The notes: generated by a model from the sequence alone, not told the origin. A stretch of 64,000 bases of DNA from Candidatus Poribacteria bacterium (GCA_022822275.1 JAJEBZ010000095.1:14036-78035); one strand, 5' to 3'; positions 2,927 to 42,782 are shown, counted from the stretch's first letter. Program-made: numbers and translations.

Positions 2927-3016
2927 ATCCGAGATTCAGGTAATCATCCACAAGCCATCAGCTATTGCTATCATCACCTGCAGCGTTTCTGCACATCTAC
3001 CCGACTTGTTAATCAA

Positions 3017-3354
3017 AATGTGAGTTTGATAATAATATTAAAGTGGGTTTGACGCAATGATTTAGAGGAAATCAACATGCTATATCACGCCTACCCAAAT
3101 TTGATGCCGAATAAATCGCAGCACTCCAGCGGAGTGCTATGTTTATAGAAAATCGGATTTTCAAGTTCTTGCACTCCAGCGGAGTGCTATGTGTGCTGAA
3201 ACCCTATACCGCTCCTACGGAGCGGGTGCTGTGTTGGATAGTTGCTATAAACATATTGCTCCTACGGAGCAAGGGACCTGTTCTGGTTTCCAACCAAGAT
3301 GAACGTCAACGAAACACCACATTCAAAATTGAATTGTTTTATTAAACTCACGTT
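3017..3354 (+). repeat. MITE-like element, family B, copy A.
   Basis: The termini 'AA(T/C)GTGAGTTTGATAA' and 'AAACTCACGTT' are inverted repeats. Internal palindromes are 'GCACTCCAGCGGAGTGC' (x2) and 'GCTCCTACGGAGC' (x2). A near-identical copy lies reverse-complemented at 28027-28315. The 3' end of this copy overlaps the stop codon of the flippase gene at 3353-3355. Confidence 0.7.
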
Positions 3355-4774
3355 AATCAAACGTGAACTTTGTGCGGAATTCGCCTAAAACAACAATTCC
3401 AATACCATAAAATATGATTGCTAAGGGAATCAGAATCCAAATTGTGAGAATCCCTTTCAACAATACCAAACCTAATCCCATTACAGCGGATAGTAGCAGT
3501 ACTTTCATAATGAAACCGATTTCGGTCAGTTTCGTAATTTTTTTGGAGATATAACCGAACCCGACGATGAGCAGAAATACCTCGCTTATGACCATAGCGA
3601 TTGCTGCACCGACATGACTGTAACGTGGGATTAGGATAAGGTTTAGGCAGATATTCAAGAGTGCGGTTGTTCCCATAAGCACAGCGAATGCTCGACGTTT
3701 GTCTGCAGCGCGCAGTACTGTTAGTACAACGGTAGTCAAGAAAATCATACCTCCCGATGCGCTTAGCCATCGTAATGCTATTGCGATATTCTCTCTGGTA
3801 TCTGAGGAATAAGCAGGGAACAACGTATGTGTTATTTCGTGGGAAAGGGTTGCCATGCCGACTGCTAACGGTACGGCACATATTACCATCCACCGCACAC
3901 CATAAGTATATGCTGCGGATAATTTTTCCCGTTTATTTTCATAGGCACGCGATAGTACAGGGAACATTGCCCCCATCATGAATGCGCCCGGTAGTGTCGT
4001 GAACGCGTTGACAATCGTATATGCTAAGCCGTACCATGTATTTGCATCAATGCCATCTGGGCTCAGTTTTGACAGCATAATTGCATCAACGCGAAAATAG
4101 ACAAGATTGAACAGGTTGCCGATTGCGAACGGCAGTGCTTGTTGCATCAGTATGGATATAATTTGACGACACGGTTCAAAACGAAGCGAAGTGAAACGGT
4201 ATCGCGTAAATCCGATGCTCAGGATCATGTTGACTACACTTGCGATTAGCATTACCTGGCACACATTCACCAGATCATATCCGAGCAGAATTGCTCCACA
4301 ACCAACGAAAAAGAACGTCCCGCGTTCTGCGACTACCGTGAATGCCTCATATTTCATCTCCTCATGTGCTCTAAACACACATCTATAGAGTTGTGCGATG
4401 CCGTTGACAATTTCTGCCAGTCCTAAATAGACAATCATTGTTACGATGATTGTGGTATATCCGAGGAATATACCGCTGATGACCATGAGGGCATAAGCGA
4501 CAATGGACAGGATAAGACGGACGAGGAGGGCATTGCCGAGGTAGTGGCGCGTTTGCGATAGGTTGAGTGTCATTTCCCGAATCAACGGGTTATGTATACC
4601 GAGTTCTGTTATGCTTGCGATGAGGTTTGTCAAAGCGATTGCAACAAAGTAGCCGCCTAATTCACTTTCTTCAAAAAAACGTGGCATTAACCAGATCGTT
4701 AGGATGAGTGAACCGAGGCGGCCAATCAGGTGTGCGCTAAACAGCGAAGATGTGTTTTTGAAAATGCGGTTCAT
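3353..4774 (-). CDS. Polysaccharide biosynthesis protein / oligosaccharide flippase (Wzx/MOP superfamily).
   Basis: The 473-aa protein is predicted to have about 12 hydrophobic transmembrane segments. Its N-terminal pattern 'LIGRLGSLILTIWLMPRFF...ELGGYFVAIALTNL' is typical of PF01943/PF13440 flippases. Confidence 0.55.
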   Translation of the reverse strand: MNRIFKNTSSLFSAHLIGRLGSLILTIWLMPRFFEESELGGYFVAIALTNLIASITELGIHNPLIREMTLNLSQTRHYLGNALLVRLILSIVAYALMVISGIFLGYTTIIVTMIVYLGLAEIVNGIAQLYRCVFRAHEEMKYEAFTVVAERGTFFFVGCGAILLGYDLVNVCQVMLIASVVNMILSIGFTRYRFTSLRFEPCRQIISILMQQALPFAIGNLFNLVYFRVDAIMLSKLSPDGIDANTWYGLAYTIVNAFTTLPGAFMMGAMFPVLSRAYENKREKLSAAYTYGVRWMVICAVPLAVGMATLSHEITHTLFPAYSSDTRENIAIALRWLSASGGMIFLTTVVLTVLRAADKRRAFAVLMGTTALLNICLNLILIPRYSHVGAAIAMVISEVFLLIVGFGYISKKITKLTEIGFIMKVLLLSAVMGLGLVLLKGILTIWILIPLAIIFYGIGIVVLGEFRTKFTFD

Positions 4775-14146: not shown

Positions 14147-15511
14147 TTAGGATTTATTCCGTGAATCCCAGACACATCTGAATCCGATGTTTGCCGCATA
14201 ATCAGCAATATACAATGTAGTGCGGAAATTTGTGAGTGCTGGTGCACAACTCCAACGGGCAGCAGTATGGAACGGGTCTGATGAAGTAAAAATGGTACCA
14301 CCCCGCAATACGCGATCGGTTTTAATGTCCAAAAACTTTGATATTAACATATCCCAATCCTCTTGTTTATCTACACCTGCAACTGGATTCCGTAAGGGTG
14401 AAGAAGAATAGAAATCTGCATTGAAAGCATCAAGACACCACTCCCAAACGTTCCCAACCATGTCATATAAACCGTAACTGTTGGCTGGATATTTTCCTAC
14501 TGAGATGATATTACCAACATCTTTACCGCAAAAAACCATGTTTGGATCAAGTTCACTTCCCCATGGATATTTTTGTCCAGTTTTTCCACCGCGTGCAGCT
14601 TTTTCCCATTCTGCTTCTGTTGGTAGGCGTTTTCCTGCCCATTTAGCATAAGCCATCGCCGCATACCAACTTATGTGAGTTACGGGATGATTAGCCTTTT
14701 CATCTGTATAGCTAGTCCAATCCCATTGTTTTAGATAGTCTTCATCATGATAGTTACTTAAAATCTGCTTGAATATCCTTCTTGTTTTATTCCAATTTCT
14801 CAGTCTACCTGGTTTCCGCCATTGCGGGTTTGCATCAAGAAACTTCTTATATTGTGCATTGGTCACTGGGTACTTGTCAATACAAAATGTATCGACGTAA
14901 ACTGTATGTACTGGTTTTTCTCGGTCATTTGCTTTTTCGTTGTTGTTGCCCATTTGGAACTCACCTGCGGGGATGGGTACCATGTCTTCAGGAATTGAAA
15001 CACTTATAGATGTCTCATCATCAGTATTTGGTAATTCATCTGATTCAGAGGAAGGAACCTCTTCTGTTTGGATAGGTTCGATAGGTTGTGATATTTCATT
15101 TTGAAGTGATGCAATGTGTTCAGCTCGTTTTTGTGGGTCTTTGAGTGTATCGCGTGCTTGATTTAGCACTGTTCGCCACTGTTCTTGTGTTCTACCGTCA
15201 GGACGAGGAAGTCCACCTGCACGTAACGAGTCGCTGTAGTATTTCTGATGTGCTGCATCAACACGGGTTACTATCGTTTCTTCACTTTGGTCTTGTAATT
15301 CTTCAAGGGATAATCCGAGAACTTGAAAATAATTGACACTTTCTCCAACAATTAACCCTGATGATTTTAGTATCTCATCTGCTTTTTCAACGGAGAGGTC
15401 AAACTCCCGGACCGCTCGGTGGAGCAGTCCTCTACGTTGCGCGTCAGTAATAGTTGGCGACAGTGTCTTAAGTGTGTTGATGACCTCAATGAAATCTTCA
15501 TGTTTGGACAT
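14147..15511 (-). CDS. J-like domain / FGE-sulfatase-fold fusion protein, paralog 1.
   Basis: The N-terminal segment 'NYFQVLGLSLEEL...HQKYYSDSLRAGGLPRPDGRT...LNQARDTLKDPQKRAEH' has J-domain architecture with HPD replaced by YSDS. The C-terminal segment 'HPVTHISWYAAMAYAKWAGKRLPTEAEWEKAARGG...YPWG...GNVWEWCLD...RVLRGG...GFRCV' is an FGE-sulfatase (SUMF1/PvdO) fold lacking the catalytic Cys pair. Confidence 0.75.
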   Translation of the reverse strand: MSKHEDFIEVINTLKTLSPTITDAQRRGLLHRAVREFDLSVEKADEILKSSGLIVGESVNYFQVLGLSLEELQDQSEETIVTRVDAAHQKYYSDSLRAGGLPRPDGRTQEQWRTVLNQARDTLKDPQKRAEHIASLQNEISQPIEPIQTEEVPSSESDELPNTDDETSISVSIPEDMVPIPAGEFQMGNNNEKANDREKPVHTVYVDTFCIDKYPVTNAQYKKFLDANPQWRKPGRLRNWNKTRRIFKQILSNYHDEDYLKQWDWTSYTDEKANHPVTHISWYAAMAYAKWAGKRLPTEAEWEKAARGGKTGQKYPWGSELDPNMVFCGKDVGNIISVGKYPANSYGLYDMVGNVWEWCLDAFNADFYSSSPLRNPVAGVDKQEDWDMLISKFLDIKTDRVLRGGTIFTSSDPFHTAARWSCAPALTNFRTTLYIADYAANIGFRCVWDSRNKS

Positions 15512-15559
15512 GTGTTGATTGCCTTTAAGATTCTAATTTTCAGTATGTATCAAAGTAGG

Positions 15560-16939
15560 TTATAAAGATTTAAATTTTAGCTGCACATCCCATGCACATC
15601 GGAATCCGACGTTAGTAGCAAATTCTGTTGATTGTCGGGGTAAGACATTTGTTAAATAAACTGCGGTGAGAAGCGGTGAACGCCCACGTCGTATAGCTGT
15701 CTGAACCGGTTCTGATGAAGTAAACTGTGTTCCACCTCGCAATACGCGATCGGTTGTAATGTTGTGAGTCTTGAAAAGTAATAAATCTAAATTTTCCTTC
15801 GTATTTTCATCGGAAACTGAATTCGGTGTTGACGTAGAACCGTAGTAATCGGCATCATATTCATCAATACACCATTCCCAGACGTTCCCTACCATGTCAT
15901 ATAAACCGTAGTTGTTTGGTGGATATTTTCCGATAGAAGTTGTCTTACCGACCTCCTTTCCGCAATATGCCATGTCTGAATTGAGCTGATTACCCCATGG
16001 ATATTTTTGTCCGTTTTTTCCACCGCGAGCAGCCTTTTCCCATTCCGCTTCTGTCGGTAGACGTTTTCCTGCCCATTGTGAGTATGCCATCGCTGCATAC
16101 CAGCTAACGTGAGTAACCGGATGGTCAGCCTTAGACCTCGGAAATTCGTTCCCGTTCCAATGTCTTAGGTAGTTAACACCGTGGTATTTCTTGAATATAG
16201 AGAGCATGATTTTCTTGATTCTATTCTGTCTACTCCACCACTTCGGGGGTTTTTTAGCCCATTGCTTATTTTCATTAACAAACCTCTTATATTGTGCATT
16301 GGTAACAGGATATTTGTCTATGTAGAAAGCATCTACATAGACTTCAAGAGGTGACAATTTACGCATTTGTGATTTATCATTATTGCTACCCATTTGGAAC
16401 TCACCTGCTGGTATGTACACCATATCATCTGTTATAGAGTGTGATAAAGATGTCTCTTCAGTTTTGTATAATTCATCCGGTTCAGAGGAAGGAACCTCTT
16501 CTGTTTGGATAGGTTGTGATATTTCATTTTGAAGTGATGCAATGTGTTCAGCTCGTTTTTGTGTGTCTTTTAGTGTATCACGTGCTTGATTTAGCACTGT
16601 TCGCCACTGTTCTTGTGTTCTACCGTCAGGACGTGGGAGTCCGCCTGCCCGTAACGAGTCGCTATAGTATTTCTGATGTGCTGCATCAATACGGGTTGTT
16701 ATAGCATCTTCACTTTGGTCTTGTAATTCTTCAAGGGATAATCCGAGAACTTGAAAATAATTGACACTTTCTCCAACAATTAACCCAGATGATTTTAGTA
16801 TTTTATCAGCTTCTTCAACGGAGAGCTCAAACTCCCGGACCGCACGGTGGAGCAGTCCTCTACGTTGCGCGTCAGTAATAGTTGGCGACAGTGTCTTAAG
16901 TGTGTTGATGACTTCAATGAAATCTTGGTGTTTGGACAT
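15560..16939 (-). CDS. J-like domain / FGE-sulfatase-fold fusion protein, paralog 2.
   Basis: The N-terminal 120 aa are near-identical to paralog 1, and the overall architecture is the same. Confidence 0.75.
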   Translation of the reverse strand: MSKHQDFIEVINTLKTLSPTITDAQRRGLLHRAVREFELSVEEADKILKSSGLIVGESVNYFQVLGLSLEELQDQSEDAITTRIDAAHQKYYSDSLRAGGLPRPDGRTQEQWRTVLNQARDTLKDTQKRAEHIASLQNEISQPIQTEEVPSSEPDELYKTEETSLSHSITDDMVYIPAGEFQMGSNNDKSQMRKLSPLEVYVDAFYIDKYPVTNAQYKRFVNENKQWAKKPPKWWSRQNRIKKIMLSIFKKYHGVNYLRHWNGNEFPRSKADHPVTHVSWYAAMAYSQWAGKRLPTEAEWEKAARGGKNGQKYPWGNQLNSDMAYCGKEVGKTTSIGKYPPNNYGLYDMVGNVWEWCIDEYDADYYGSTSTPNSVSDENTKENLDLLLFKTHNITTDRVLRGGTQFTSSEPVQTAIRRGRSPLLTAVYLTNVLPRQSTEFATNVGFRCAWDVQLKFKSL

Positions 16940-16978
16940 GTGTTGATTTGCCTTTAAGATTGTAATCTGCTGAAGTTC

Positions 16979-18160
16979 TCAAAATAGATATAGAGTTTCT
17001 GACTTAAGTTTTATATCCCAAGCACATCGGAATCCGATGTTTGCCGAGAAACTTGATAAGTGTTTTGAATATACTGAGGTGTAAAAGGGAGAACGACCAC
17101 TTCGTAAGGCTGTCTGAATAGGTTCAGAGGTTGTAAAAAGAGAACCCCCTCGCAAGACGCGATCCGTTGAAACGTTACTATAATAGGAGCATAATTGTTG
17201 CAACTCCTTTTCCGTGTTTACACCGGCAACTGGATTTCTATCCGAAGCAGTTGCAAAGAAATTTGGCACATATTCATCAAGACACCACTCCCAGACGTTC
17301 CCTACAATATCGTGCAAACCGTAGTTATTCGGAGGATATTGTCCTATAGCAGTGGTCACTCCAACCTTATTTCCACAATATGCCATGCTATAATTGAGTT
17401 CATCTCCCCATGGGTATTTTTGTCCTGTTAATCCACCGCGAGCAGCCTTTTCCCATTCTGCCTCTGTTGGCAAACGTTTACCTGCCCACTCAGCATAAGC
17501 CATTGCAGCGTACCAACTCACATGCGTTACAGGATGGTCGGCTTTTCCAATCGGGAAGTTGTCCCCGTTCCAATGTTTTAAGTAATCTCCATCATGAAAG
17601 TTTCTATAAATAGATAACAGCTTATTCCTATTCCATTTTGATGGTTTGCTCCATTTTGGGTTGACTTCAATGAATTCCTTATATTGTGTATTGGTAACAG
17701 GATATTTGTCTATGTAAAAAGTGTCTACATAGACCTTATGTGCTTTTGGTTTGCGGTGAGTTGTGCTCTTGTTGTCTATTTGGAATTCACCAGCGGGAAT
17801 ATGTACCATATTGTCTGGAACTGAAAGTGTAATGGATGTTTGTTCAGGTGCCAGTATATCTTTTTGAATGCTGGGATCTACAGAATGTATGTCTGCATCT
17901 TTTATCATTGCGATGTGTTCAGTAAGTTTTTGTGGGTCTATTAGGGTGTCGCGTGCTTGATTGAGAATTGTTCGCCACTGTTCCTGTGTTCTACCGTCAG
18001 GACGAGGAAGTCCACCTGCCTGCAAAGATTCACTGTAACATTTCTTATGTGCTTCATAAACGATAGCAGCTATTGTGTCCTCGCTTTGGTTTTGGAATTC
18101 TTCTATAGATAGTCTTAACACTTCAAAGTAGTTTAGTTCATCACCGACCATCAACCCCAA
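16979..18160 (-). pseudogene. J-like/FGE-fold paralog 3, N-terminally truncated and possibly still expressed.
   Basis: The reading frame continues upstream to 18221 ('LVPTTCGVTSITDIQRRGLLKQAVQNYDLSVEEASEILKS') and then hits a TGA stop. The conserved 'MSKHEDFIEVINTLKTL' N-terminus is missing because the DUF2971 gene occupies that position. The only available starts are an internal TTG or ATG. Confidence 0.55.
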
Positions 18161-18219
18161 AGACTTCAGTATTTCAGAGGCTTCTTCAACGGATAGGTCA
18201 TAATTCTGTACTGCTTGCT

Positions 18220-18972
18220 TCAGCAGTCCACGTCGTTGAATATCTGTAATACTGGTGACTCCACAAGTTGTAGGAACCAGTCAGGAACTAAATGTGCAAC
18301 GACTATTTCTTGAATCAACAATTCAAGATTAACTTCATAGTTAATACCCATACCGTAGATATCCTCCCATTTGGTGATTTCCTCAATGGATATTTCCTGA
18401 ATACTACTCCTTAATTCGGTTATATCAATCCCGGAAGGAGGTTTCTGAACAATAGCTCTCACTTCTCTTTCAGACTCAAAGTTTTTTCTTTTGTATAGAT
18501 ATGGTACTAACCCGTTATCTTCTGGTATGGTATCATTATCGTAGTCAACATATTGAACCTGTCCAATATGAATTTGTTCGTTAGTTATAAAACACTTTTC
18601 GAGAGCATCAGGATTTGTTCTAATAGCAATACCACTATTCTGATTAGCATACCGATTCCACATTGACTCCGATTCATATTTGCTTTCGTGCCAGCAACTA
18701 ATAAATGTATAACGCGTTAAACGTTCCATTACGTGAGCATACTTGAATATATCTTCTTTAGAAAGATTTGGAGTTAAAGTAGTACGTAAAGTTGCATTTT
18801 TCTTTGGAAACGATCCCTCAAAAGGATCACCAAGTTTGTCTGCTCTGGCGAAAAACAGAGTGCGATTTTCCAAAATTGATACAAATTTCGTGAAGTCCAT
18901 GTATCTCCACAAAATAGCGTCTAAGGTAGGTGGTTTGTAAAATTCGAGAATTTTAGAATTTAGATCATCCAT
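18220..18972 (-). CDS. DUF2971-family protein.
   Basis: 'LWRYMDFTKFVSILENRTLFFARADKLGDPFEG' matches the DUF2971 signature (LYRY...FNDPFE), which is recalled from memory and not searched. The gene is inserted inside the J-FGE paralog array. Confidence 0.5.
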   Translation of the reverse strand: MDDLNSKILEFYKPPTLDAILWRYMDFTKFVSILENRTLFFARADKLGDPFEGSFPKKNATLRTTLTPNLSKEDIFKYAHVMERLTRYTFISCWHESKYESESMWNRYANQNSGIAIRTNPDALEKCFITNEQIHIGQVQYVDYDNDTIPEDNGLVPYLYKRKNFESEREVRAIVQKPPSGIDITELRSSIQEISIEEITKWEDIYGMGINYEVNLELLIQEIVVAHLVPDWFLQLVESPVLQIFNDVDC

Positions 18973-19074
18973 GAAATGTTGTTAGATAGACAAAATTAAC
19001 TTGTTACATTGACTTTTATTTTTAGAGTTTCCATCAGGCTAACCAGCCGTTCTAATATACGTGGTTTTGAAATT

Positions 19075-19416
19075 TCAGGTAGATTGCCTTACCTCTGCCT
19101 GTTCTCGCAAAAACTTCTGTTCTTTTTTCAGGATAGTGATGGATTCAGTGATAGTAGAATCTGCTAAAGCTTTTTTTAGAATTGCATTAAATATAAGCTT
19201 CATATCATCTTGATTATCTTGTCCGTCAAGCAAATCAAAGTAATCTACATGCTTATCCTGAATCTGCTGCAAAAGAACAGCTGACTCCCGCCCAGCGGCA
19301 TCCACGACAACAGATCGGAGCAGATCATCATTGTCAATTTTTAAGAGTTCCTCAGGTCCAAGTGTGATTTTTACACGTTCCGCTATGTAGGTTGGCATTT
19401 CCTTTATATGATACAT
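19075..19416 (-). CDS. Hypothetical acidic protein.
   Basis: This is a 113-aa ORF co-oriented with the DUF2971 gene in the array-interrupting cassette. It has no recognisable motifs. Confidence 0.3.
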   Translation of the reverse strand: MYHIKEMPTYIAERVKITLGPEELLKIDNDDLLRSVVVDAAGRESAVLLQQIQDKHVDYFDLLDGQDNQDDMKLIFNAILKKALADSTITESITILKKEQKFLREQAEVRQST

Positions 19417-19661
19417 TATATTTCCTCTATCTATGTTGTTAGAAATTGACTCATAAGGATATGATCCATTGGGAGAATCCTTTTTTACTTTAACTCAAGA
19501 AACACAAGGAATTGAAAACAGTTCTAATATTATAGTAATCAACCGAATTTTAGCATAGGATTTGACAAATAGCAATTTAAATTGGTGAAGTACTACTATA
19601 AAGGTGATAGTGCATAAATATAATGCCATGTATAGTATGAAGACGAAAAGAGGATTGTCGT

Positions 19662-21035
19662 TTACAAAGTTGCTTCCTTTACACAACGAAAACCGAAAAT
19701 CGGCAGTGTGTCTACGGGACTACTTCTGAATCGGTATGCGACCCGTGCCCCCTGTGCATCCACACTCCATGAACCTCCGCGCAACACGCGCGAAGTCTTG
19801 ATGTCCCTAAAGTTTTCGGTTGTCCACTCAATATTATTCGCATCAAAAAATGGATTGCGTGTTGGTGAATTTGCGTAGAAATCTGCATTATACGCATCAA
19901 GACACCATTCCCAAACGTTACCACACACATCATATAAACTGTAGTTGTTTGGTGGATAACGTCCAACAGGAGTAGTGCCACGTGTGTGATAGAAGTAGTT
20001 TGCTTTGCCACGGCCGATTGAATCTCCCCATGGGTATTTCTTTCCCTCTAAACCGCCGCGCGCTGCTTTTTCCCATTCTGCTTCTGTTGGAAGACGTTTG
20101 CCGACCCATTCTGCATACGCCATCGCTGCGTACCAACTGATCCGAGTGACTGGGTGGTCATCTTTTCCATCCGGAAAGTCATCACCTGCCCAATGCCTCA
20201 AGTAGGATCCGTTGTGGTGGGTTATAGAGATATGTTTTTTGAACCATTGCGGTTTACGCCACTACGGGTTTGCATCAATGAATTCTTTATACTGTGCATT
20301 GGTTACAAGGTATTTATCTATGCAGAACGTGTCAGTATAGACTGTATGTGCGGGTTTTTCACGTTCATTTGCCTTCTCCTCATTACTTCCCATCCGAAAT
20401 TCTCCTGCTGGAATGAGTGTCATATTATCGGGTACATCAACGATTAACTGGATCGATTCTGGGGTAGCAGTTTGAACATTTTGCCTTGCTGGTAGTGTGT
20501 TCTCTTCTGGAATTGCCGATTCTGCAGTGTTCGGTTCGGTAGGTTGAGATTCGGTATTTATTTGTTGAATATCATCTGCGGGTGTCTCAAATGTGTCTCC
20601 TTCAGACAGAAATGTATCCAAATATGCTTTTCGTTTTTGTGGGTCTATTAGGGTGTCGCGTGCTTGATTGAGAATTGTTCGCCACTGTTCTTCTGTTCTA
20701 CCATCAGCACGGGGACGACCGCCAGCACGCAACGAAGCGGTGTATAGTCTTTTGTGAGCAACCTCTACACGGTTCGCGATTGTCAATTCGTCTAACCTTT
20801 GAATTTCATCTATTGAGAATCCCAAGACCTCAAAGTAATCAATCCGTTCACCGATAGTCAGTCCTGCCGCATTGAGGATATTCATTGTTTCATCAATAGT
20901 GAGCCCATGCTGCTGTACCCCTAACCGCAAAAACCCCTTGCGTTGTTCGTCCGTTATAGTGGGTGAGACTGCTTTGAGTTGATTGATGAAGACAATAAAT
21001 GTATCGCGTTCGCGCATGTTCAGTCCTTTTGTCAA
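19662..21035 (-). pseudogene. J-like/FGE-fold paralog 4, disrupted by an in-frame amber codon.
   Basis: The ORFs 20262..21035 and 19662..20201 are in the same frame. The translation reads 'FIDANP*WRKPQW', where intact paralogs have 'DANPQWRKP'. The plus-strand 'cta' at 20262-20264 is the TAG. This is a single CAG-to-TAG change. Confidence 0.7.
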
Positions 21036-21103
21036 GATTGATACTATTTTTTCGTCAAGATTGATACTATTTTATAGTAACCTTTAGAATTAATTGGATA
21101 TTA

Positions 21104-21210
21104 TGTTCGGTTCGGTTAGGAAACCGAACCTACCGGGGTTATAGCACAAACTGTTATTTTGTATCCGCATTTGCACAAACTAACAGTTTGTGCTACAAAA
21201 GTGCCCCATT
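21104..21210 (+). repeat. MITE-like element, family C, copy 1.
   Basis: A 'ttatgttcggttcggttaggaaaccgaacc' arm is followed by the palindrome pair 'GTAGCACAAACTGTTA...CACAAACTAACAGTTTGTGCTAC'. The same structure recurs at 28333-28446, with fragments at about 8410-8475 and about 26440-26495. Confidence 0.55.
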
Positions 21211-21246
21211 AATTATATGTTTTAGTATAGTAACTCAAACGGAGAT

Positions 21247-22473
21247 TTATGTCGTAATAGACTTTACACAACGAAAACCGATGTTAGAATTTGCATAAGT
21301 CGGTAGCGCGGCAGAACGTTTTGCGGTTCGTATGTTCTGCACCTTATTGTACCAAGAACCGCCACGCAGTAAACGTAGTGCTTTAGAATTTCTATAGCTA
21401 TTTACTATTCTGCTAATGCTGTCCCCTGTGACGGGATTTTCACTTGGTGAAGATGCATAGAAGTGTTCATCCCACTCATCAAGGCACCATTCCCACACAT
21501 TCCCCGACATATCATATAAATCGAACTCATTTGCCGGATACTCTCCTACGGGTGTTGTAGAACCGATATTTTTGCCGAAGTTTGCCTTTGTGGTATCTAT
21601 GAGATCTCCCCATGGAAACTTCTTACCAGCTAAGCCACCACGAGCAGCCTTTTCCCATTCCGCTTCTGTTGGTAAACGTTTACCAATCCATTCTGCATAC
21701 GCCATAGCAGCATACCAGCTAACGTGAACTACCGGATGATTCGCTTGTCCATCCAAATAGTTGTTCCTATGCCAATGGTGGAGGAGGTACCCATCGTGGT
21801 ATTTTGCGGGTAGAAACTTACTCAATCCTTGGGGTTTGTTCCATTGCGGGTTTGCATCAACGAATGCCTTGAATTGTGCATTTGTTACCGGATATTTGTC
21901 TATATAAAACGCATCCACAAAGACAGTGTGTACAGGTTGTTCATCATTAAAAGCTTCGTTATCACTGCCACCCATTTCAAATTCACCTGCAAGAATAAGT
22001 TCCATGTCATCGTCAAGATGTAAAGGCACTGTGGGGGTGTCTACTAATGCTTCTTCGGTATGTTGTACTGTTGTAAGGTGTGCGTTCCGTTTCTGCGGGT
22101 CTATTAACACATCCCTTGCTTGATTTAGGAGTGTCCGCCACTGTTCTTCTGATTTGCCATCTGCACGCGGACGTCCACCTGCCTGCAATGATGTGCTGTA
22201 CAAGTTTTTATGTGCAGTTTCTACGCGTTCAGTGATAGCCACTTCATCTAAACTTTGGATCGCTTCAACTGTTAGTCCTAAGATTCCAAAATAATCCTCT
22301 TGTTCTCCAATCACTAAACCAGATGAATTTAGAATGTCAGCTGCATCATCAATAGATATGTCAAACTGTTGCACAGCTCTACGGAGCAATCCTTTTCGTT
22401 GTTCATCAGAAATTGTCGGTGAAACCGTTTTAAATTCGTTAATGAGGGTTATATATTCATTACGTTTTGACAT
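21247..22473 (-). CDS. J-like domain / FGE-sulfatase-fold fusion protein, paralog 5.
   Basis: It has the same architecture as the other paralogs, including 'YFGILGLTVEAI...HKNLYSTSLQAGGRPRADGKSEEQWRTLLNQARDVLIDPQKR' and 'HPVVHVSWYAAMAYAEWIGKRLPTEAEWEKAARGG'. Confidence 0.75.
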   Translation of the reverse strand: MSKRNEYITLINEFKTVSPTISDEQRKGLLRRAVQQFDISIDDAADILNSSGLVIGEQEDYFGILGLTVEAIQSLDEVAITERVETAHKNLYSTSLQAGGRPRADGKSEEQWRTLLNQARDVLIDPQKRNAHLTTVQHTEEALVDTPTVPLHLDDDMELILAGEFEMGGSDNEAFNDEQPVHTVFVDAFYIDKYPVTNAQFKAFVDANPQWNKPQGLSKFLPAKYHDGYLLHHWHRNNYLDGQANHPVVHVSWYAAMAYAEWIGKRLPTEAEWEKAARGGLAGKKFPWGDLIDTTKANFGKNIGSTTPVGEYPANEFDLYDMSGNVWEWCLDEWDEHFYASSPSENPVTGDSISRIVNSYRNSKALRLLRGGSWYNKVQNIRTAKRSAALPTYANSNIGFRCVKSITT

Positions 22474-22534
22474 TAGATATTTCTCTTTGGTAAATAGTTT
22501 TTTTGGACAGAATTGAGTCGGTAAAACGTCAAGG

Positions 22535-23836
22535 TTAAACTGGCATCACACAACGGAACCCTATGCTGAAACAAGTATACTTAGGTGTATTACGTGAACG
22601 GTATGCTACCCTAACGTTCTGAGGTATACTCACACAGGAACCGCCGCGCATAATCCGAAAAGACCTAATGTCAGTAAAGTTATTCACAGTTTGGACTATG
22701 CTATCACCTGAAAACGGATTATCCCGTGGGGACTGCATATAGAAGTTTTTATTCCATGCGTCCAGGCACCATTCATACACATTGCCTATCATATCATATA
22801 AACCGTAGTTGTTCGGGGGATATTTACCGACAGTTGTTGTTTTACCGATGTATGCGTCATAGTTTAAATAACTTGCATCAATCGTACTTCCCCATGGATA
22901 TTTTTCGCCTATCAAACCACCGCGTGCAGCCTTTTCCCATTCTGCTTCGGTAGGAAGACGTTTGCCCATCCACTGTGAGTATGCCATCGCAGCATACCAA
23001 CTCACCCAAGTTGCTGGATGTTGATCTTCTCCTCTTGGGTAATCGTTTTTATTCCAATTTTTCAGGTATTCCCCATCGTGAAATTCTCTGAGGATATTTG
23101 CTGTATCAATCTTACCCGACTCATACCATTTCAATGGTTTGCGCCATTGCGGATTCTCATCAATAAATGCTTTAAATTGTGCGTTTGTTACTGGATATTT
23201 ATCCATATAGAAAGCATCTACATAAACAGTATGTATAGGTTTTTCATCGTTGAATGCGTCTCTTTCATCACTTCCCATCTGAAATTCGCCTGCAGGAATG
23301 AGAACCATGTCATCTTTTTCTAATGGAATAGAGGGAGTATGCTGCTCCACCGAAACTGATTGTGTCTGTTCAGAAGGGGTGTTTTCTATCTCTGATATAG
23401 ATTCATTGGAAGGAACTGCACCGTTTTGGAGAAGTGCAATATATTCTTGTCGTTTTTCTACGTCTATAAGTACCTCACGAGCCTGATTCAGGAGCGTTCG
23501 CCACTGTTCTTCTGTTCTACCGTCAACACGGGGACGACCGCCTGCACGCAACGAAGCGGTATATAGTTTTTTGTGTGCAACCTCTACGTGGTTCACGATT
23601 GCCAATTCGTCTAAACTTTGAAGTTCGTCAATAGAGAAACCTAACACTTCAAAGTAATTAATCTGTTCACCGATTGTCAGTCCTGCCGCATTGAGGATAT
23701 ACGTTGCTTCATCAATAGTGAGCCCATGTTGCTGTACCCCTAACCGCAAAAACCCCTTGCGTTGTTCATCGGTTATAGTGGGTGAAGCAATTTTGAGTGC
23801 GTCTATTATCGCAATAAAATCATCCCTGTTTGACAT
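22535..23836 (-). CDS. J-like domain / FGE-sulfatase-fold fusion protein, paralog 6.
   Basis: It has the same architecture as the other paralogs, including 'NYFEVLGFSIDEL...HKKLYTASLRAGGRPRVDGRTEEQW' and 'HPATWVSWYAAMAYSQWMGKRLPTEAEWEKAARGG'. Confidence 0.75.
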   Translation of the reverse strand: MSNRDDFIAIIDALKIASPTITDEQRKGFLRLGVQQHGLTIDEATYILNAAGLTIGEQINYFEVLGFSIDELQSLDELAIVNHVEVAHKKLYTASLRAGGRPRVDGRTEEQWRTLLNQAREVLIDVEKRQEYIALLQNGAVPSNESISEIENTPSEQTQSVSVEQHTPSIPLEKDDMVLIPAGEFQMGSDERDAFNDEKPIHTVYVDAFYMDKYPVTNAQFKAFIDENPQWRKPLKWYESGKIDTANILREFHDGEYLKNWNKNDYPRGEDQHPATWVSWYAAMAYSQWMGKRLPTEAEWEKAARGGLIGEKYPWGSTIDASYLNYDAYIGKTTTVGKYPPNNYGLYDMIGNVYEWCLDAWNKNFYMQSPRDNPFSGDSIVQTVNNFTDIRSFRIMRGGSCVSIPQNVRVAYRSRNTPKYTCFSIGFRCVMPV

Positions 23837-23927: not shown

Positions 23928-25523
23928 TTATTCAACGATTAGGTCTTGTAGGTCAGTTTTTGCCTGTGCAACCTCTTCTTCATTGAGGGTCGGTCTATCA
24001 ATAATGGAAAAGATGTCGTAAACGGCGGTTGCATCATCGTCAGAAAGAGATGTTGCAGTTACCTCAAGATTTTGGTGCAAGTTGTATTTGTAGATAACTT
24101 CAATTGGAGACCCTTGTGGCAACCCCGTTGGCAGCTCAAGCGTGCATTCGCCCAATTTGTACTCATCAAAGAGATCGATATCTTCCTTGAATTGATCCTG
24201 TTCAAGCCCCTGTACAACTTCAATTAACACCGAAGGTTGATTGCGGTCTACTGTCAAAAACTTATCTCCGACTTCACATGGCACAGCAGTCATTTTAGGT
24301 ATCATGACATGGATGATGTGCTCGCGTTGTGCGTTTAGGACGACAAGTCCGAGGTTATGTGTTGCCCCATCAGTTACAGTCACCTTTGGAGCACCGTCAG
24401 GCCCGATAAACCTTTCAATGACAGCGTCAGGTATATCTGTTGTTTCGGTTTCACCTTCGGATATTTGGCGGAGTGTTCCCTGAATAGCAGCACCGATTGC
24501 CACGACTTCATCTGGGTTGACTTCATAAGGATTGATCTCTTTACCACTGCTTGCGGCTATCATTTCCCGCACCATCGGCATCCGAGTTGACCCGCCTACC
24601 AACAAGATTTTGTCTATATTTTCCCATGTCATGTCTGCTTCCGTAAGGACAACATTGCACAAAACACGGCATCTTTCAAGCAGGTCTGCGGTGAGTTGTT
24701 CAAACTTTTCTCTGGTCAATTCCACCCGTGTTGTCTTGCCGTTGTATCCGCAAACGATGAGGGCGCGCTGCCTTAATGACAAAGATTCTTTTGCGGTGAT
24801 CGCATCCAGTTGTAAGTCTTGATACGTGTGAAGGTCTTCTAACGGATTTTCCCCGTGTTCAATTTCATACATCTCCGCAACATGCGTGATGATCTTATCA
24901 TCCCAATCCTTACCGCCAAGTCTGTGGTCACCGTTTGTAGCGAGCATCTGGATTTCAGTTTCTGACACTTTCATGATCGTCACATCAAACGTACCACCAC
25001 CAAGGTCAAACACGAACACATTTTGGTTGGTACCCAATTGGTCCATACCGTAAGCGAGCGCGGCGGCGGTTGGTTCGTTGAGGACTTGCAGGACGTTCAA
25101 CCCAGCAATTTTCCCCGCGTTTCGGGTTGCTTCGCGCTCCGCGTCATGAAAATAGGCGGGAACAGTGATAACAGCATCTGTGATTTCTTCACCCAGATAT
25201 GTTGCGGCATCCTGCTTGAGTTTTGTCAGAATGATTGCGGAGAGTTCTTCGGGGGAATAGTTCTTTGCGTCAAATGTGCGAAAGTATTCTGCCTTGGACT
25301 TACCCATCTCCCGTTTGACAAACTCAACAATCTGTTCGGGAACTGCTCTGGCGTTTTGCTTAGCGATTTTGCCGACGGTTACGAGGGTGTCCTCAAACAT
25401 AATGACCGACGGTGTAATACGTTCACTTTCCAAGTTTGGAATGATCTCTGCCTGTCCATGCTCATTGATGTGTGCTATTGCAGAGAATGTCGTTCCGAGA
25501 TCAATCCCAACGACTTTACCCAT
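23928..25523 (-). CDS. Atypical Hsp70-family chaperone (short, lid-less DnaK/HscC-like paralog).
   Basis: The N-terminus 'MGKVVGIDLGTTFSAIA' is the phosphate-1 motif. 'VFDLGGGTFDVTI' and 'ILLVGGSTRMPMV' are canonical Hsp70 NBD motifs. At 531 aa the protein is too short for a full DnaK C-terminal lid. The start overlaps the stop of the upstream GrpE-like gene. Confidence 0.8.
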   Translation of the reverse strand: MGKVVGIDLGTTFSAIAHINEHGQAEIIPNLESERITPSVIMFEDTLVTVGKIAKQNARAVPEQIVEFVKREMGKSKAEYFRTFDAKNYSPEELSAIILTKLKQDAATYLGEEITDAVITVPAYFHDAEREATRNAGKIAGLNVLQVLNEPTAAALAYGMDQLGTNQNVFVFDLGGGTFDVTIMKVSETEIQMLATNGDHRLGGKDWDDKIITHVAEMYEIEHGENPLEDLHTYQDLQLDAITAKESLSLRQRALIVCGYNGKTTRVELTREKFEQLTADLLERCRVLCNVVLTEADMTWENIDKILLVGGSTRMPMVREMIAASSGKEINPYEVNPDEVVAIGAAIQGTLRQISEGETETTDIPDAVIERFIGPDGAPKVTVTDGATHNLGLVVLNAQREHIIHVMIPKMTAVPCEVGDKFLTVDRNQPSVLIEVVQGLEQDQFKEDIDLFDEYKLGECTLELPTGLPQGSPIEVIYKYNLHQNLEVTATSLSDDDATAVYDIFSIIDRPTLNEEEVAQAKTDLQDLIVE

Positions 25524-26229
25524 CTATACTGCCTCCTTTCTCACTGGAAGGAGATTCATTTATTGAGTTTTCAGATTTTTGGGTGTCGGGAGTATATCGA
25601 AATATTGTCACCTCTTCTGGTCGGAACACTTTCTCTCGCCAATGAAACCCAATTTTATGAACTTCTGCGATTTTCTGATCCTGTTGTGGCTCATCTGACG
25701 GTATTACCTTGCGCGTCTTGTGCAAATGCCGATCAAGCGTGTCCAGAGACTCCTTATAGGGTGTCACATCCATACGGTATAGTACCTCTTCAAGTTTAAA
25801 CCGAAAGTTCTCCACATTTTTCCGAAATTGGTTGAGTTCATCTGGCAGCGTTTCTTCATGCCCGCTCAATATATCGTCAAGTTGTGTTTCAAGCATCCCG
25901 TAACTATCATATAGTTGGATTAGGTTGTGGATAATCGGTTTGTGAAGTACTTCAAGTAGAAAACTTTCCTTATATTCTTTCATTTCAGCATATATTTTGT
26001 CAAACATCTCTGTCTGATTCTGGTTTCGTGCAATCTGCTTTTCGAACAGATCTTGTAGTGAAGATAAGGTTTGATTTACCTGTGCCAGGTCTCTTTGTTG
26101 TGGCATTTCCAGATCATCCAGTTGTGCATCCGAATCCATTTCAACATTATCACTTTTTTCTACTAAATCTGAATCTGTGTCTATATCGGTACTTAGTTTT
26201 ATATCATCTTCATTCAATTGCTTTTCCAA
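25516..26229 (-). CDS. GrpE-like nucleotide-exchange factor.
   Basis: A coiled-coil region is followed by 'FDKIYAEMKEYKESFLLEVLHKPIIHNLIQLYDSYGMLE', which parallels the GrpE 'ENLRRRTERE..A..FA.EKF..DLLPV.DNLERAL' block. The C-terminal 'VHKIGFHWREKVFRPEEV' parallels the GrpE 'QKGY..GR.LRPAMV' block. The likely start is the TTG at 26229, which follows the RBS AAGGAGG. The longer ORF from 26295 begins inside the promoter -10 box. Confidence 0.5.
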   Translation of the reverse strand: MEKQLNEDDIKLSTDIDTDSDLVEKSDNVEMDSDAQLDDLEMPQQRDLAQVNQTLSSLQDLFEKQIARNQNQTEMFDKIYAEMKEYKESFLLEVLHKPIIHNLIQLYDSYGMLETQLDDILSGHEETLPDELNQFRKNVENFRFKLEEVLYRMDVTPYKESLDTLDRHLHKTRKVIPSDEPQQDQKIAEVHKIGFHWREKVFRPEEVTIFRYTPDTQKSENSINESPSSEKGGSIDG

Positions 26230-26286
26230 AATAGAACCCTCCTTACAACGAGTTTTTCTTAGGGGGGTAGTTCCAAGTCTCTTTTG

Positions 26287-26315
26287 ATTATACAACGAAT
26301 TAGGTAGTCTGTCAA
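26287..26315 (-). promoter_or_regulatory. Consensus sigma70-type promoter for the grpE-like/hsp70/J-FGE operon.
   Basis: On the minus strand the sequence reads TTGACA, then a 17-nt spacer, then TATAAT. The RBS AAGGAGG and the GrpE-like start lie about 50 nt downstream. Confidence 0.6.
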
Positions 26316-26558: not shown

Positions 26559-27839
26559 TTAACTTTTCTGCCACGGGACACTTCCTGCCTTCTGTTTTTC
26601 TTCCTGAAACAAACGTCCCATTTCCCTATAAAGTTTGTTGTTTGTGCGTGAAGTGTCATTTGCTTCCATCGAATCGCTTGATAGGTCATATAGTTCCAGT
26701 GGCTCAAAAGGACTATTGTGTAGCAACTTGATGTCCCCCTGTCGTATTGCGTGTTGACACTGTGCGTGAAAGCGGTTTCCCCCCTCTCTGCGTATCCAGT
26801 ATAGCAGACGATCAGAGAAATCCTGTTTTTCTCCTTGAAGTGTTTGCCAAATAGAACGCCCCTCAATTTCATGTTTGACAGGAATATCAGCGACTTCACA
26901 CACTGTCGGCAAGAGATCCATAAGCATTGCTACCTGATCTGTAACGTGTCCTTCTGGTATGTGGTCTTTCCACATTGCACATGTAGGGACTCGGATACCT
27001 CCTTCGTACATCTGTCCTTTTTGTCCACGGAGCGGACCATTGTTTGCCCCAACCTGCATTGCCCCGCCATTGTCTGACGTGTAAATCACCAGCGTATTGG
27101 AGAGTTGACCGGTTTCCTCAAGTGAGTCCAGCACACGTCCGATACCGGCATCCATGTGTTCAACGAGAGCAACGTATTTTGCGCGTTGATCTGAAATCTC
27201 CGGTTCACGTTTTCGTACTCTTTCAATCCAGTCATCGGGTGGTTGGATAGGTGTATGTGGTGCGTTGTAAGCGAGATAGAGGAAAAATGGATGGGATGTG
27301 TGTGCATGCGTGCGAATAAAGTCTACGCTCCAATCCGAGAAAAGATCTGTGGCGTGTCCTCTCGGATCAATGGTTTCAAAACCGCGCCGCATGTAGTTAT
27401 TGCCATGTCGGAGATGTGTGTAATAGTCGTCCATCATATCGCCGAGGAAACCGTGAAAATGGTCAAACCCGCGTTTGCACGGGTGATTCTCATCTTCAAG
27501 TCCCAAATGCCACTTCCCGATAAGTGCCGTGCGATAGTCTTTCTGTTTCAACATTGAAGGCAGTGTGATTGCGTCCTGTTGAAAATAACCCCAGTTGTTC
27601 TGGGCATGCGTGCGTATTACACCGGGGACACCGACTCTATCAGGATAGCGTCCGGTCATAAGCGATGCACGACTTGGAGAACATACAGAGGAGTTTGCAT
27701 AAAATTGCGTTAAGCGAGTGCCTTCTGCGGCAATTCTATCAATATTAGGGGTTTGGATTGAGGGGCCGTCATGAGCTGATATATCGCCATATCCGTGATC
27801 GTCTGCAAGGATGAGTAAAATGTTTGGTGATTTTGCCAT
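26559..27839 (-). CDS. Cys-type sulfatase (arylsulfatase family) without a signal peptide.
   Basis: 'NILLILADDHGYGD' is the sulfatase N-terminal metal-binding motif. 'SSVCSPSRASLMTGR' contains the C-x-P-x-R formylglycine target. The start at 27839 follows an AGGAGA RBS. The N-terminus MAKSPNILLIL has no hydrophobic leader. Confidence 0.8.
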   Translation of the reverse strand: MAKSPNILLILADDHGYGDISAHDGPSIQTPNIDRIAAEGTRLTQFYANSSVCSPSRASLMTGRYPDRVGVPGVIRTHAQNNWGYFQQDAITLPSMLKQKDYRTALIGKWHLGLEDENHPCKRGFDHFHGFLGDMMDDYYTHLRHGNNYMRRGFETIDPRGHATDLFSDWSVDFIRTHAHTSHPFFLYLAYNAPHTPIQPPDDWIERVRKREPEISDQRAKYVALVEHMDAGIGRVLDSLEETGQLSNTLVIYTSDNGGAMQVGANNGPLRGQKGQMYEGGIRVPTCAMWKDHIPEGHVTDQVAMLMDLLPTVCEVADIPVKHEIEGRSIWQTLQGEKQDFSDRLLYWIRREGGNRFHAQCQHAIRQGDIKLLHNSPFEPLELYDLSSDSMEANDTSRTNNKLYREMGRLFQEEKQKAGSVPWQKS

Positions 27840-28026
27840 AGTTATCTCCTTATGGGGTATGATTTGTATTTCAACTAACAATGCAAAACGCCCAAATTAG
27901 CATGTCGTGCAGCCAAGTTGGGCGTGATGCGTGGTCGCTTCAATATAGGGGCGGGGGCTCCCCGCCCGTTGTTTCAATCTATAAGACATGATAAACAACA
28001 AGAACTCACTATATATAGTAGACTTT

Positions 28027-33732: not shown

Positions 33733-34749
33733 CTATCTTGCTTGAATAATTGAGCCGTAACGAACAATCTGAGTCCGCTGTGTTGGTAACCAATAGGGTG
33801 GGCAATATGCACCAAAAGTTTCAATTGTTGCGACTAATGCAAATCTTTCACAGCCGAAAAGTTCTTGGTTACGTGTGTCAGATATTTCAGGTATTTCTCT
33901 TCGTGCAAAAACGCGGTCGTAGGGAAGATCTTTAACCAATGCTAATCTGTCATTGTTGTAGATCGGTCCAGATAATGGTTTTGCCCAAGTAGCTTTTACG
34001 TCAGGACGTGACCTAACTTTAAAGGAAGCAAGTTGACCATATCCCAATGTAGTTTTCTTACCAAGTCCAATCTGTTCCTTGATAGCAAAATCTAACAACG
34101 TTTCAACTCCCCCTTTATCACCGCGAAAGAAAAAGACGTAACTTTTAGTAAGTGGAAAATAGAGACGATTGTCAAGTGCTTTCGTTGAACCACCACCCGT
34201 ATTCAGTTTATTCTTCAGACCAATCGGACGACCAAACGGTTCGTTTACTCTTCGTCGTAACGGAATAGAATCTACAACTTCAGGATATACCTTAAATTGC
34301 TGACTATTGGAAGTGAAAAATGCTCCTACAGGAATAAGGACATCATCGTTGACATCAACGGGTAAACCTACTGAACAATCATACAGTGGCTTTAACCTTG
34401 TCAACGGAATTTTGCGTAACGGAAGTTCAAAGTCTATCCACATTTCTTGATCACGTAACGCTATATTCCATTGCCATAACAACTGTTGGGAAAGTTCGGG
34501 ATTTCCATTTAAGGCGTTACCCAATGCAGCCCGGAAGGCAACATAACTGAGAAATCCATCAAGCGTAGGAAGCCCAATGACAGGTGCATTTGACTTCTCA
34601 GCAGTAGTCACTGCGGATGTAGCTAAATTTAATCGAAGTTCGTATATTTCCTTTCCTGTCTTCACTCCGAATCGGTACTGTGCATCTTCGAGTATTTTTT
34701 TGATAGACAAATCAGGCTGTAACACTGAATTAGATCTACGCGACTTCAT
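33733..34749 (-). CDS. Cas5-like RAMP (Csf3/Cmr3-like).
   Basis: The N-proximal 'GLPTLDGFLSYVAFRAALG' resembles the Cas5 'P-P-S-T-x-x-G-x-L-R' block. The C-proximal glycine-rich loop is 'GLGKKTTLGYGQ'. Its start is an ATGA overlap with the upstream Cas7-like stop. Confidence 0.5.
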   Translation of the reverse strand: MKSRRSNSVLQPDLSIKKILEDAQYRFGVKTGKEIYELRLNLATSAVTTAEKSNAPVIGLPTLDGFLSYVAFRAALGNALNGNPELSQQLLWQWNIALRDQEMWIDFELPLRKIPLTRLKPLYDCSVGLPVDVNDDVLIPVGAFFTSNSQQFKVYPEVVDSIPLRRRVNEPFGRPIGLKNKLNTGGGSTKALDNRLYFPLTKSYVFFFRGDKGGVETLLDFAIKEQIGLGKKTTLGYGQLASFKVRSRPDVKATWAKPLSGPIYNNDRLALVKDLPYDRVFARREIPEISDTRNQELFGCERFALVATIETFGAYCPPYWLPTQRTQIVRYGSIIQAR

Positions 34750-35708: not shown

Positions 35709-35709
35709 G

Positions 35710-36180
35710 CTATGCATCTCCTTCACCGGCATCTTCAAGTAGGAGTTGGGCTTTATCTGCCTCATCTATTCCTCCTCGTGCCTCTTGATAGATTTTTTTC
35801 ATGAGCATTACTAATGGCGTTGTCTCTTCTTTCAAAAGTCTCAATGCCTCATCAACGTGTTCAGTTTTAGACTGATAGATTGCTTCAGTTACTTCTCCAA
35901 GACACCGTAATGTAATGAAATTGGGGGAAATAGCTAACTGCACATCATTCACCAAACTACCAAGTGTTTCTGAATTAGAAGCACGTATGTACTTGACAAG
36001 TACTGAGTATGGATTAAACATTTCCTTTCGCTTAAATAACTTTGGGTCAAGCGGACCTCGCATCAGAAGAAGCGTTTGAACTGCTAACTTGACAGATTCA
36101 TCAAAATCAAGTTTCTCGGTAGCTTGTAGTGCGTCAGTTAAAGTTTCCTCTAAAGTCTTCGACTGGTTTTGTTCTGTCAT
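35710..36180 (-). CDS. Cas11-like small helical subunit candidate.
   Basis: The protein is 156 aa and predicted all-alpha. It sits between the large-subunit candidate and the Cas7-like gene, as the small subunit does in type I-E, III and IV-B loci. An AGGAGG RBS lies upstream. Confidence 0.4.
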   Translation of the reverse strand: MTEQNQSKTLEETLTDALQATEKLDFDESVKLAVQTLLLMRGPLDPKLFKRKEMFNPYSVLVKYIRASNSETLGSLVNDVQLAISPNFITLRCLGEVTEAIYQSKTEHVDEALRLLKEETTPLVMLMKKIYQEARGGIDEADKAQLLLEDAGEGDA

Positions 36181-36191
36181 GGCGAATCCTC

Positions 36192-42727: not shown

Positions 42728-42782
42728 TATAAGAGTATTAGCAGAAATCCAGTCGTTGTGTGACTCATTACGGAGGATTCTG

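Follow-up and report, generated by a model that had tools for sequence, protein, structure and literature searches.

A 64,000-nucleotide stretch from a Candidatus Poribacteria bacterium (GCA_022822275.1 JAJEBZ010000095.1:14036-78035; herein the window) carries six paralogous genes on its minus strand, between positions 14147 and 23836, next to genes for a GrpE-like protein and an Hsp70. Judged from sequence, this region is probably the adaptor array of a dedicated co-chaperone system, in which the GrpE-like protein and the lid-less Hsp70 work with many paralogous adaptors that carry a diversified target-binding repertoire. The adaptors (P1 through P6) appear to consist of an N-terminal three-helix module; a J fold devoid of the His-Pro-Asp (HPD) tripeptide, with a long helix II-III hairpin tipped by a nearly invariant P-R-x-D-G loop; a disordered linker; and a putatively non-catalytic head of the FGE/C-type lectin fold with hypervariable surface loops. 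An earlier note on this DNA had described both fused domains as degenerate, the J-domain having lost HPD and the FGE fold its catalytic Cys pair.

A Divergent J-Like Module without HPD

The J-like modules of the window paralogs score only 12 to 13 bits against Pfam DnaJ (E 0.1 to 0.2), below the gathering threshold of 27.8 bits. An N-terminal alignment of 31 sequences, compared profile to profile with eight canonical J-domains in hhalign, reaches a probability of 94.4% (E 9e-8), and a profile of the wider family 96.1% against J-domains. An AlphaFold model of residues 1 through 142 has a predicted local distance difference test score (pLDDT) of 83; with this model the best 23 PDB matches in Foldseek are all J-domains (probability 0.91 to 1.0; TM to target 0.46 to 0.74). 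Because these three independent tests (two profile-profile comparisons and AlphaFold/Foldseek) agree, we assign the module as a genuine but divergent J-domain, with a predicted four-helix fold and a helix II-III hairpin. The divergence is considerable: a profile built from the N-terminal alignment, when searched against the PDB, gave nothing at E ≤ 10, so sequence alone gives no link to solved J-domains. In the model, helix II (residues 77 through 98) is longer than that of DnaJ, and the loop at 99 through 108 corresponds to the GGRPRxDG segment.

HPD is absent from all six window paralogs and from each of the 192 J-like modules in the Poribacteria loci described below, in either of two alignment registers. 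In the first, obtained with hhalign against the eight J-domains and with a small J-domain hidden Markov model (HMM) on P6 (KYYSDS opposite KYHPDK), Y92-x-x falls on H33-P34-D35. In the second, obtained with the wider-family profile and with an ungapped alignment of the relative P0242, A-H-x-x-L-Y falls on A24-Y25-x-x-L28-A29 and L96-x-A lies at HPD. Neither register yields HPD or an Asp at position 35, and profile-profile alignment revealed no alternative HPD in the aligned loop. The YSDS, YSES, YTAS and YSTS strings quoted in the earlier note, and the GG(R/L)PR loop, are all found on the minus strand in the six paralogs. Its claim that Y-S/T-x-S replaces HPD stands as regards the loss of HPD, but the equation of the two sites belongs to only one of the registers. 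The motif itself is better given as Y-x-x-S-L, since the residue following Y may be S, R, A, T or N; of the 192 modules, all have the S and 191 have the Y.

The Y-x-x-S site is followed in every paralog by GG(R/L)PR.DG(R/K)(T/S).EQW. Across 63 full-length homologs, H88, Y92, S95, L96, G99, R103, D105, W112 and R113 are invariant or nearly so, and P-R-x-D-G in the hairpin loop is the most conserved feature of the wider family. P0242 is a more canonical intermediate (NYYDVLGVPQNATAEQIAEAHQKLY), which matches Pfam DnaJ with E 1.2e-4 and 22.5 bits, again under the gathering threshold. A shorter subfamily begins directly at the J-like module (MNYFEVLELSIDEIQGKDE...HKKLYALTIGAYANVPRPDGKTQAQWQ); a homolog search with its profile gave two matches only. 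HPD is treated as a defining and indispensable feature of J-domains. A large census of J-domain proteins (JDPs) discarded all non-HPD sequences by design, and because surveys filter on HPD, J families that lack it are invisible to them (PMC10410713).

The N-terminal three-helix module (RDEFIxxINxLKxxSPTITxEQRxGLL...GLSxDEAxxIL; residues 1 through 57 of the adaptors) is a separable domain. In some relatives (P0148, P0158, P0161, P0169 and P0245) it lies after the J-like module or occurs more than once, and a protein of 3058 aa has up to seven stretches that match it.

The Partner Hsp70

The residues of the cluster Hsp70 were mapped onto Escherichia coli DnaK, using a DnaK sequence that passed 19 position checks. 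The protein has the DnaK-type architecture (catalytic residues of the nucleotide-binding domain, interdomain linker and β-subdomain of the substrate-binding domain, SBD-beta) and retains the ATPase and allostery residues K70, P143, D148, E171, D194, T199, D201, K414, P419, I438, V440 and L484; its NCBIfam DnaK score is 415 bits against a cutoff of 648. It has no helical lid, the C terminus lying ∼35 residues past SBD-beta. The linker reads VTVTD, against VLLLD in DnaK, and is preceded by a conserved insertion of ∼22 residues. Four positions of DnaK are changed as R167 to Q146, D208 to S187, D477 to K479 and D481 to H483; E206 is replaced by K and E217 by Q, and four residues are deleted from the 206-221 hairpin.

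In the canonical complex, D35 of the DnaJ HPD hydrogen-bonds with R167 and Q378 of DnaK, H33 contacts the L391 backbone and P34 contacts P419; DnaK R167H suppresses DnaJ D35N, D481 clamps on R167/I168, and D208-K26 belongs to a set of three Hsp70-J contacts that co-evolve (PMC8215388, PMC5519331). At the position of R167, 40 of the 44 Hsp70 orthologs from the adaptor loci have Q and 4 have H; of the 120 best-matching database homologs, 117 have Q and 2 have H (119 of 120 Q or H). The residue is also Q in the Hsp70s of two of the unrelated contigs described below (L058 and L060). Throughout the subfamily, S or A stands in place of D208. Both sides of the HPD contact, that of the Hsp70 and that of the J module, have been lost in one lineage, and circumstantially this points to a private interface between co-evolved partners. 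The earlier note suggested that the module may engage the Hsp70 without classical ATPase stimulation. Changes to the residues with which the Hsp70 would read HPD (R167 to Q, D208 to S, D481 to H) suggest an interface that has been rewired and may still stimulate the ATPase, rather than one that is dead.

J-like proteins of the Pam16/Tim16 type act beside a true J partner. If the module were a regulator or decoy of this kind, or a structural element, it would fail to activate its Hsp70, and the adaptors might be clients or inhibitors of the latter instead of co-chaperones. We regard this as unlikely. The absence of HPD and the sub-threshold Pfam score would fit, and Pam16/Tim16 and DNAJB13 (for the latter, PMC10410713) are precedents for a J fold minus the classical HPD; these proteins, however, work beside a true J protein or structurally, whereas no examined adaptor cluster encodes an HPD-bearing J protein to be regulated and the Hsp70 itself is altered. 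The residues at the hairpin tip are, moreover, invariant, and because the Hsp70 has lost the residues that read HPD, a canonical DnaJ is unlikely to serve it.

FGE-Fold Heads with Hypervariable Loops

The heads of the intact paralogs match the FGE-sulfatase family (PF03781) with E values of 1e-56 to 1e-67. In the PDB they match FGEs (E 1e-35), with TvpA (2Y3C) and SUMF2 also among the matches. The Cu(I) ligands of Thermomonospora curvata FGE are Cys269 and Cys274 (PMC6676471), the human counterparts being C336 and C341. HMMER alignments of the heads to the T. curvata, Streptomyces coelicolor and human enzymes place the first catalytic Cys in a three-residue deletion of P1 and the second opposite Pro, and no Cys pair is found at the active site in any window paralog or in the distant relatives inspected (L058/L061), in agreement with the earlier note.

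Variation within the head is unevenly distributed. Among 170 aligned proteins with a J-like module and an FGE-fold head, the motifs of the fold (WYAAMAY...LPTEAEWEKAARGG, GNVWEW, RGGS and GFRC) have entropies of 0.5 to 1.2 bits, while four segments (231 through 272, 317 through 336, 367 through 393 and 401 through 425 in P1 numbering) reach 2.1 to 2.5 bits, near the value of the disordered linker (2.9 bits). The last of these corresponds to the loop of real FGEs that carries the Cys pair and borders the substrate groove; here it is hypervariable. The same J-like module is elsewhere joined to WD40, ankyrin, HEAT or PEGA domains. Because the Cys pair is absent, the loops are hypervariable, the modules are shuffled and the head can be swapped for WD40, ankyrin, HEAT or PEGA domains, the heads look like non-catalytic binding modules, as had been proposed from the sequence at the outset.

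The earlier note went further and proposed binding of the CxPxR motif, and on this point the alignments give it no support, as the loop that would form the groove is either deleted or hypervariable and repeat domains can stand in for the head. In its fullest form this explanation would have the system chaperone nascent sulfatases for formylglycine maturation or export, the heads acting as non-catalytic binders of the sulfatase motif. Poribacteria carry many sulfatases, a sulfatase gene flanks the operon both in the window (26559-27881) and in L061, and the closest solved relatives of the heads by sequence are true FGEs. Nevertheless, we find such a specificity distinctly unlikely: apart from the shortened and hypervariable groove loop and the swapping of heads, the W108/W109 segment of the T. 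curvata enzyme (PMC6676471) lies in a region that HMMER cannot align and that is a hypervariable insert in the adaptors, and many divergent paralogs would be unexpected for the recognition of one short, conserved motif.

There is similarly little probability that the heads are enzymes of another chemistry, as are PvdO or EgtB, which lack the Cys pair, with the Hsp70 merely assisting. NCBIfam matches to EgtB, SenA and PvdO exist but are far under their cutoffs (125 bits against 360; 76 against 500). The equivalents of W228 and S266 (in GNVWEW and RGGS) are mostly kept, but P1 has Y for W228, and both P5 and P6 have T for S266; the heads have no DinB-like iron domain, their variable loops hold no conserved His, Cys, Asp or Glu, and repeat domains can take their place.

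P5 and P6 share 93% identity in their J-modules (94% in DNA) and only 56% in their heads; for P1 and P3 the values are 75% and 58%. By these comparisons the modules of the adaptors have separate histories and evolve as a mosaic. The FGE-type C-type lectin (CLec) fold is the usual site of the variable repeats of diversity-generating retroelements (DGRs) (PMC10907252), and FGE-type CLec domains are viewed as ligand sensors in conflict systems (PMC7159879, PMC10907252, PMC12642450). A DGR origin of the head diversity was considered for this window and rejected: no head segment has an extra, template-like copy in the window, where repeated FGE segments are the six paralog copies only, and Tandem Repeats Finder detected no tandem or CRISPR-like array. 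No reverse transcriptase was found among the ORFs scanned, a subset of all those in the window. As no template-like copy is present, the diversity is carried by the paralogs themselves.

Relatives and Operon Order

In a pattern-based scan that took a single genome from each species, 57 loci had the N-terminal module, most of them from Candidatus or uncultured Poribacteria and four labelled just "uncultured bacterium". An Hsp70 ortholog (72 to 97% identical) is present in 44 of the 57, nearly always directly upstream of the adaptors and usually after a GrpE-like gene. The adaptor arrays comprise 1 to 11 genes within 20 kb; in the Poribacteria arrays the J-like module is also found on WD40 propellers and ankyrin repeats, and DDE transposases, DUF2971 genes and an ORF of 113 aa interrupt the arrays. 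The family is small: an exhaustive HMM search of 1.84 billion cluster representatives retrieved only 134 proteins at E ≤ 1e-3, of which just one has a canonical HPD, and that one matches weakly and in part.

The order GrpE, Hsp70, J-like adaptor is common to four unrelated contigs that have distant members of the family or the Hsp70 subfamily, and this conservation bears out the view of the earlier note that the J-like module belongs with the adjacent Hsp70. L058 has genes for a caspase-PEGA-FGE protein, GrpE, Hsp70 (533 aa), a J-like-FGE protein (1018 aa) and WD40 proteins; L060 encodes GrpE, Hsp70 and a J-like-PG_binding/PEGA protein; L061 encodes a sulfatase, GrpE, Hsp70, a J-like-FGE protein (758 aa), a TPR protein and GH95, with flanks as in the window; and L062 encodes an Hsp70-vWA protein, GrpE, Hsp70 and a J-like-BACON/HEAT protein. 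The spread beyond Poribacteria is judged from GC content alone (69% in L060).

Two further arrangements were seen among these loci. The Hsp70-vWA fusion of L062 (723 aa; 2582-4753) lies just 5′ of the GrpE-Hsp70-J-like(HEAT) triad, with HicAB and PIN toxin-antitoxin genes nearby. In L053 (6605-10411) and L054 (6599-10411), a stop-to-stop ORF of 1269 aa with SNF2 helicase and Mrr restriction-endonuclease domains has the J-like match at its C-terminal end; this is either a true fusion or two genes merged by a crude ORF call.

Organization of the Locus

All genes of the operon are on the minus strand. The GrpE-like gene occupies at most 25516-26295, with a probable TTG start at 26229; its product matches Pfam GrpE (E 3.3e-11; 43.6 bits against a cutoff of 25.8) and, weakly, NCBIfam GrpE models. 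Directly 5′ of it lies a σ70-like promoter (TTGACA-17-TATAAT; 26287-26315) that matches the consensus at 12 of 12 positions, a consensus match only; the Shine-Dalgarno sequence AAGGAGG follows at 26238-26244, ahead of the TTG. The grpE stop overlaps the start of the Hsp70 gene by 8 nt. The Hsp70 (531 aa; 23928-25523) matches Pfam HSP70 with E 1.7e-118 and DnaK structures in the PDB with E 1e-87.

Six adaptor genes follow, within the span given in the earlier note; one of them has an in-frame stop, another is truncated, and two unrelated genes lie among them. P1 (433 aa, YTAS; 22535-23836), assigned by Pfam FGE-sulfatase, hhalign, AlphaFold and Foldseek, is laid out as the N-terminal three-helix module (23666-23836), the J-like module (23432-23665), the disordered linker and the FGE-fold head (22547-23317). 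P2 (408 aa, YSTS) lies at 21247-22473. P3 (YTAS; 19662-21035) has a TAG codon at 20262-20264, in the position of the family Gln in NPQW, and is either a pseudogene or the product of a sequencing error. P4 (393 aa, YSES; 16979-18160) starts just ahead of its J-like module and is without the first ∼55 residues, that is, without the three-helix module. P5 (459 aa, YSDS; 15560-16939) has RGGT in place of RGGS. P6 (454 aa, YSDS) lies at 14147-15511. A 23-nt tandem duplication (TTTTGTCAAGATTGATACTATT, 2.1 copies) at 21027-21073 extends from the 5′ end of P3 into the upstream intergenic region.

The two genes between P3 and P4 are unrelated to the adaptors and lie in a stretch of low GC content (0.376). 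One is a 113-aa ORF (19075-19416, minus strand) that gave no match in Pfam, NCBIfam or PADLOC scans; it is also found within the arrays of L002, L020, L021 and L049. The other encodes a DUF2971 protein (18220-18972, minus strand; Pfam E 2e-6) that matches the PADLOC defence candidate PDC-S31 (E 5.5e-17); DUF2971 genes are found in the adaptor arrays of seven loci. Together (18220-19416) they resemble a small cassette that either inserts into the arrays again and again or is carried along with them.

The in-frame stop of one copy, the N-terminal truncation of another and the break-up of arrays elsewhere by insertion sequence (IS) transposases could be read as signs of an array in decay, its members degenerate duplicates without current function. 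This is scarcely credible, as four of the six copies are intact, the core motifs are strongly conserved across 170 sequences and dozens of genomes, and the operon order is maintained.

Proposed Function and Comparison with Known Systems

We propose that the head of each adaptor would bind a specific macromolecular target, while the J-like module would dock on the cognate Hsp70 through its extended hairpin, a co-evolved interface taking the place of the HPD-R167 contact. The module might then hand the target to the Hsp70, position it or trigger hydrolysis, and GrpE would recycle the Hsp70 and so reset the cycle. Paralogs with FGE, WD40, ankyrin and HEAT heads would constitute a germline repertoire of specificities. 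The likeliest use of such a system, and the least supported step of the scheme, would be to recognize and to remodel or sequester particular, possibly foreign, proteins of phage or host. A conflict or immune-like role is suggested by the reputation of FGS, WD40 and ankyrin domains as sensors (PMC7159879, PMC12642450), the caspase-FGE neighbor in L058 and the PDC-S31 genes inserted in the arrays. These hints are set against the flanking genes and the PADLOC results given below.

A bolder form of this proposal is possible, though doubtful. It is that of a natural orthogonal Hsp70 machine in which the HPD-R167 lock has been replaced on both partners, a PRxDG-tipped hairpin reading an Hsp70 with Q167, S208 and H481 and an extended linker region, and in which FGE, WD40 and ankyrin germline receptors steer the machine to unfold or sequester foreign (phage or host) proteins, as an innate-immune-like or symbiosis system.

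Several observations weigh against the proposed system or parts of it. The exact residues at the HPD position depend on the register (Y92-x-x or L96-x-A), both being plausible; a K26-to-E charge swap on J helix II, which holds in just one of the two, was dropped as a candidate, since with the residue equivalence on the J side depending on the register it cannot be asserted. The R167-to-Q change may also, or instead, reflect an altered intramolecular R167-D481 clamp, because D481 is H in this Hsp70. Among the Hsp70 orthologs there is no signal of covariation between the Q/H variants of R167 and the J-like motif: the H clade has mostly Y-R-x-S-L-N, yet so do some Q loci. The full-length AF2 model is poor in the C-terminal half of the head (pLDDT 41 to 51 over residues 350 through 420), which makes it unfit for a fold search or for mapping residues there. 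No model in PADLOC-DB v2 matches the adaptors; the matches of the Hsp70 and GrpE are marginal (E 3e-4 and 1e-3), and the inserted DUF2971 gene alone gives a match. Finally, the operon is flanked in the window mostly by housekeeping or carbohydrate genes (the sulfatase and GH95), and because of these flanks and the synteny retained in L061 the locus is unlike a mobile defence island.

The proposed system has the three components of the DnaK-DnaJ-GrpE triad and, like class C JDPs, an N-terminal J fold followed by a presumed target-selecting domain, with the ATPase and allostery residues of the Hsp70 retained. It differs in its HPD-less adaptors with a longer, PRxDG-tipped hairpin, in their tandem arrays of up to 11, and in an Hsp70 from which R167, D208, D481 and the helical lid of DnaK are missing and whose linker reads VTVTD, with a 22-residue insertion. 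In the HscA/HscB and HscC/DjlB-DjlC systems, too, a dedicated Hsp70 of shortened architecture works with J partners that have co-evolved with it (PMC8215388), but HscA and HscC work without GrpE and their partners keep HPD or HPE, whereas the adaptor system has its own GrpE and neither tripeptide. As in TvpA (2Y3C), the FGS domains of STAND/VMAP proteins, SUMF2/pFGE and the FGE-like immunity proteins of type VI secretion systems, the heads have the FGE-sulfatase fold minus the Cys pair, and variation in domains of the TvpA/FGS/SUMF2 type is also concentrated in the C-terminal RGGS...GFRC loop region. In contrast to the TvpA/FGS type, the diversity of the adaptors resides in germline paralogs, with no template-repeat copy in the window, and the partner is an Hsp70 rather than a STAND NTPase, protease or kinase. 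The proposed GAP1-N2 conflict theme HSP70-GrpE-DnaJ(FNIII/TPR) (Kaur et al. 2020) similarly unites a dedicated HSP70, GrpE and a J protein with interaction repeats; that theme is centered on a GTPase and has been reported in actinobacteria and firmicutes, whereas no GTPase was seen at the adaptor locus, where the heads have the FGE fold and HPD is absent. We found no description of a GrpE-Hsp70-adaptor operon in the searchable literature, coverage of which is incomplete.

HPD-less J adaptors paired with an altered Hsp70 would provide a natural test of how J-domains trigger Hsp70, and orthogonal chaperone pairs might be modeled on them. In related proteins DGRs diversify the very loop in which the arrayed heads vary, which suggests that a receptor-like repertoire can direct Hsp70. 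Poribacteria are sponge symbionts, and such targeting would bear on bacterial immunity and on the biology of these symbionts.

Other Features of the Window

Four co-directional ORFs on the minus strand (33733-38561) may form a divergent type IV-like Cas module. Two have sub-threshold NCBIfam matches to type IV CRISPR proteins, one to Csf3/Cas5 (33733-34749; E 2e-6) and the other to Csf2/Cas7 (34746-35765; E 7e-14); the remaining ORFs, of 156 and 789 aa, have no matches, and the window is free of CRISPR-like arrays as judged by Tandem Repeats Finder.

The other features lie on the plus strand. A 739-aa protein (42756-44975) combines regions 2 and 4 of an extracytoplasmic function (ECF) σ factor with an inactive M16 peptidase domain at its C terminus, and the gene ahead of it (41423-42727) has an M16-like domain too. 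At 47647-52126 there are four tandem oxidoreductase paralogs of the GFO/IDH/MocA type (∼345 aa), three of which share 78 to 84% DNA identity at a spacing of ∼1170 nt. Four tandem large proteins (604 to 909 aa; 52322-63223), with internally repeated units of ∼830 nt and FlgD_ig/Por_Secre_tail C termini for sorting by the type IX secretion system, make up a second expanding paralog family of the window.

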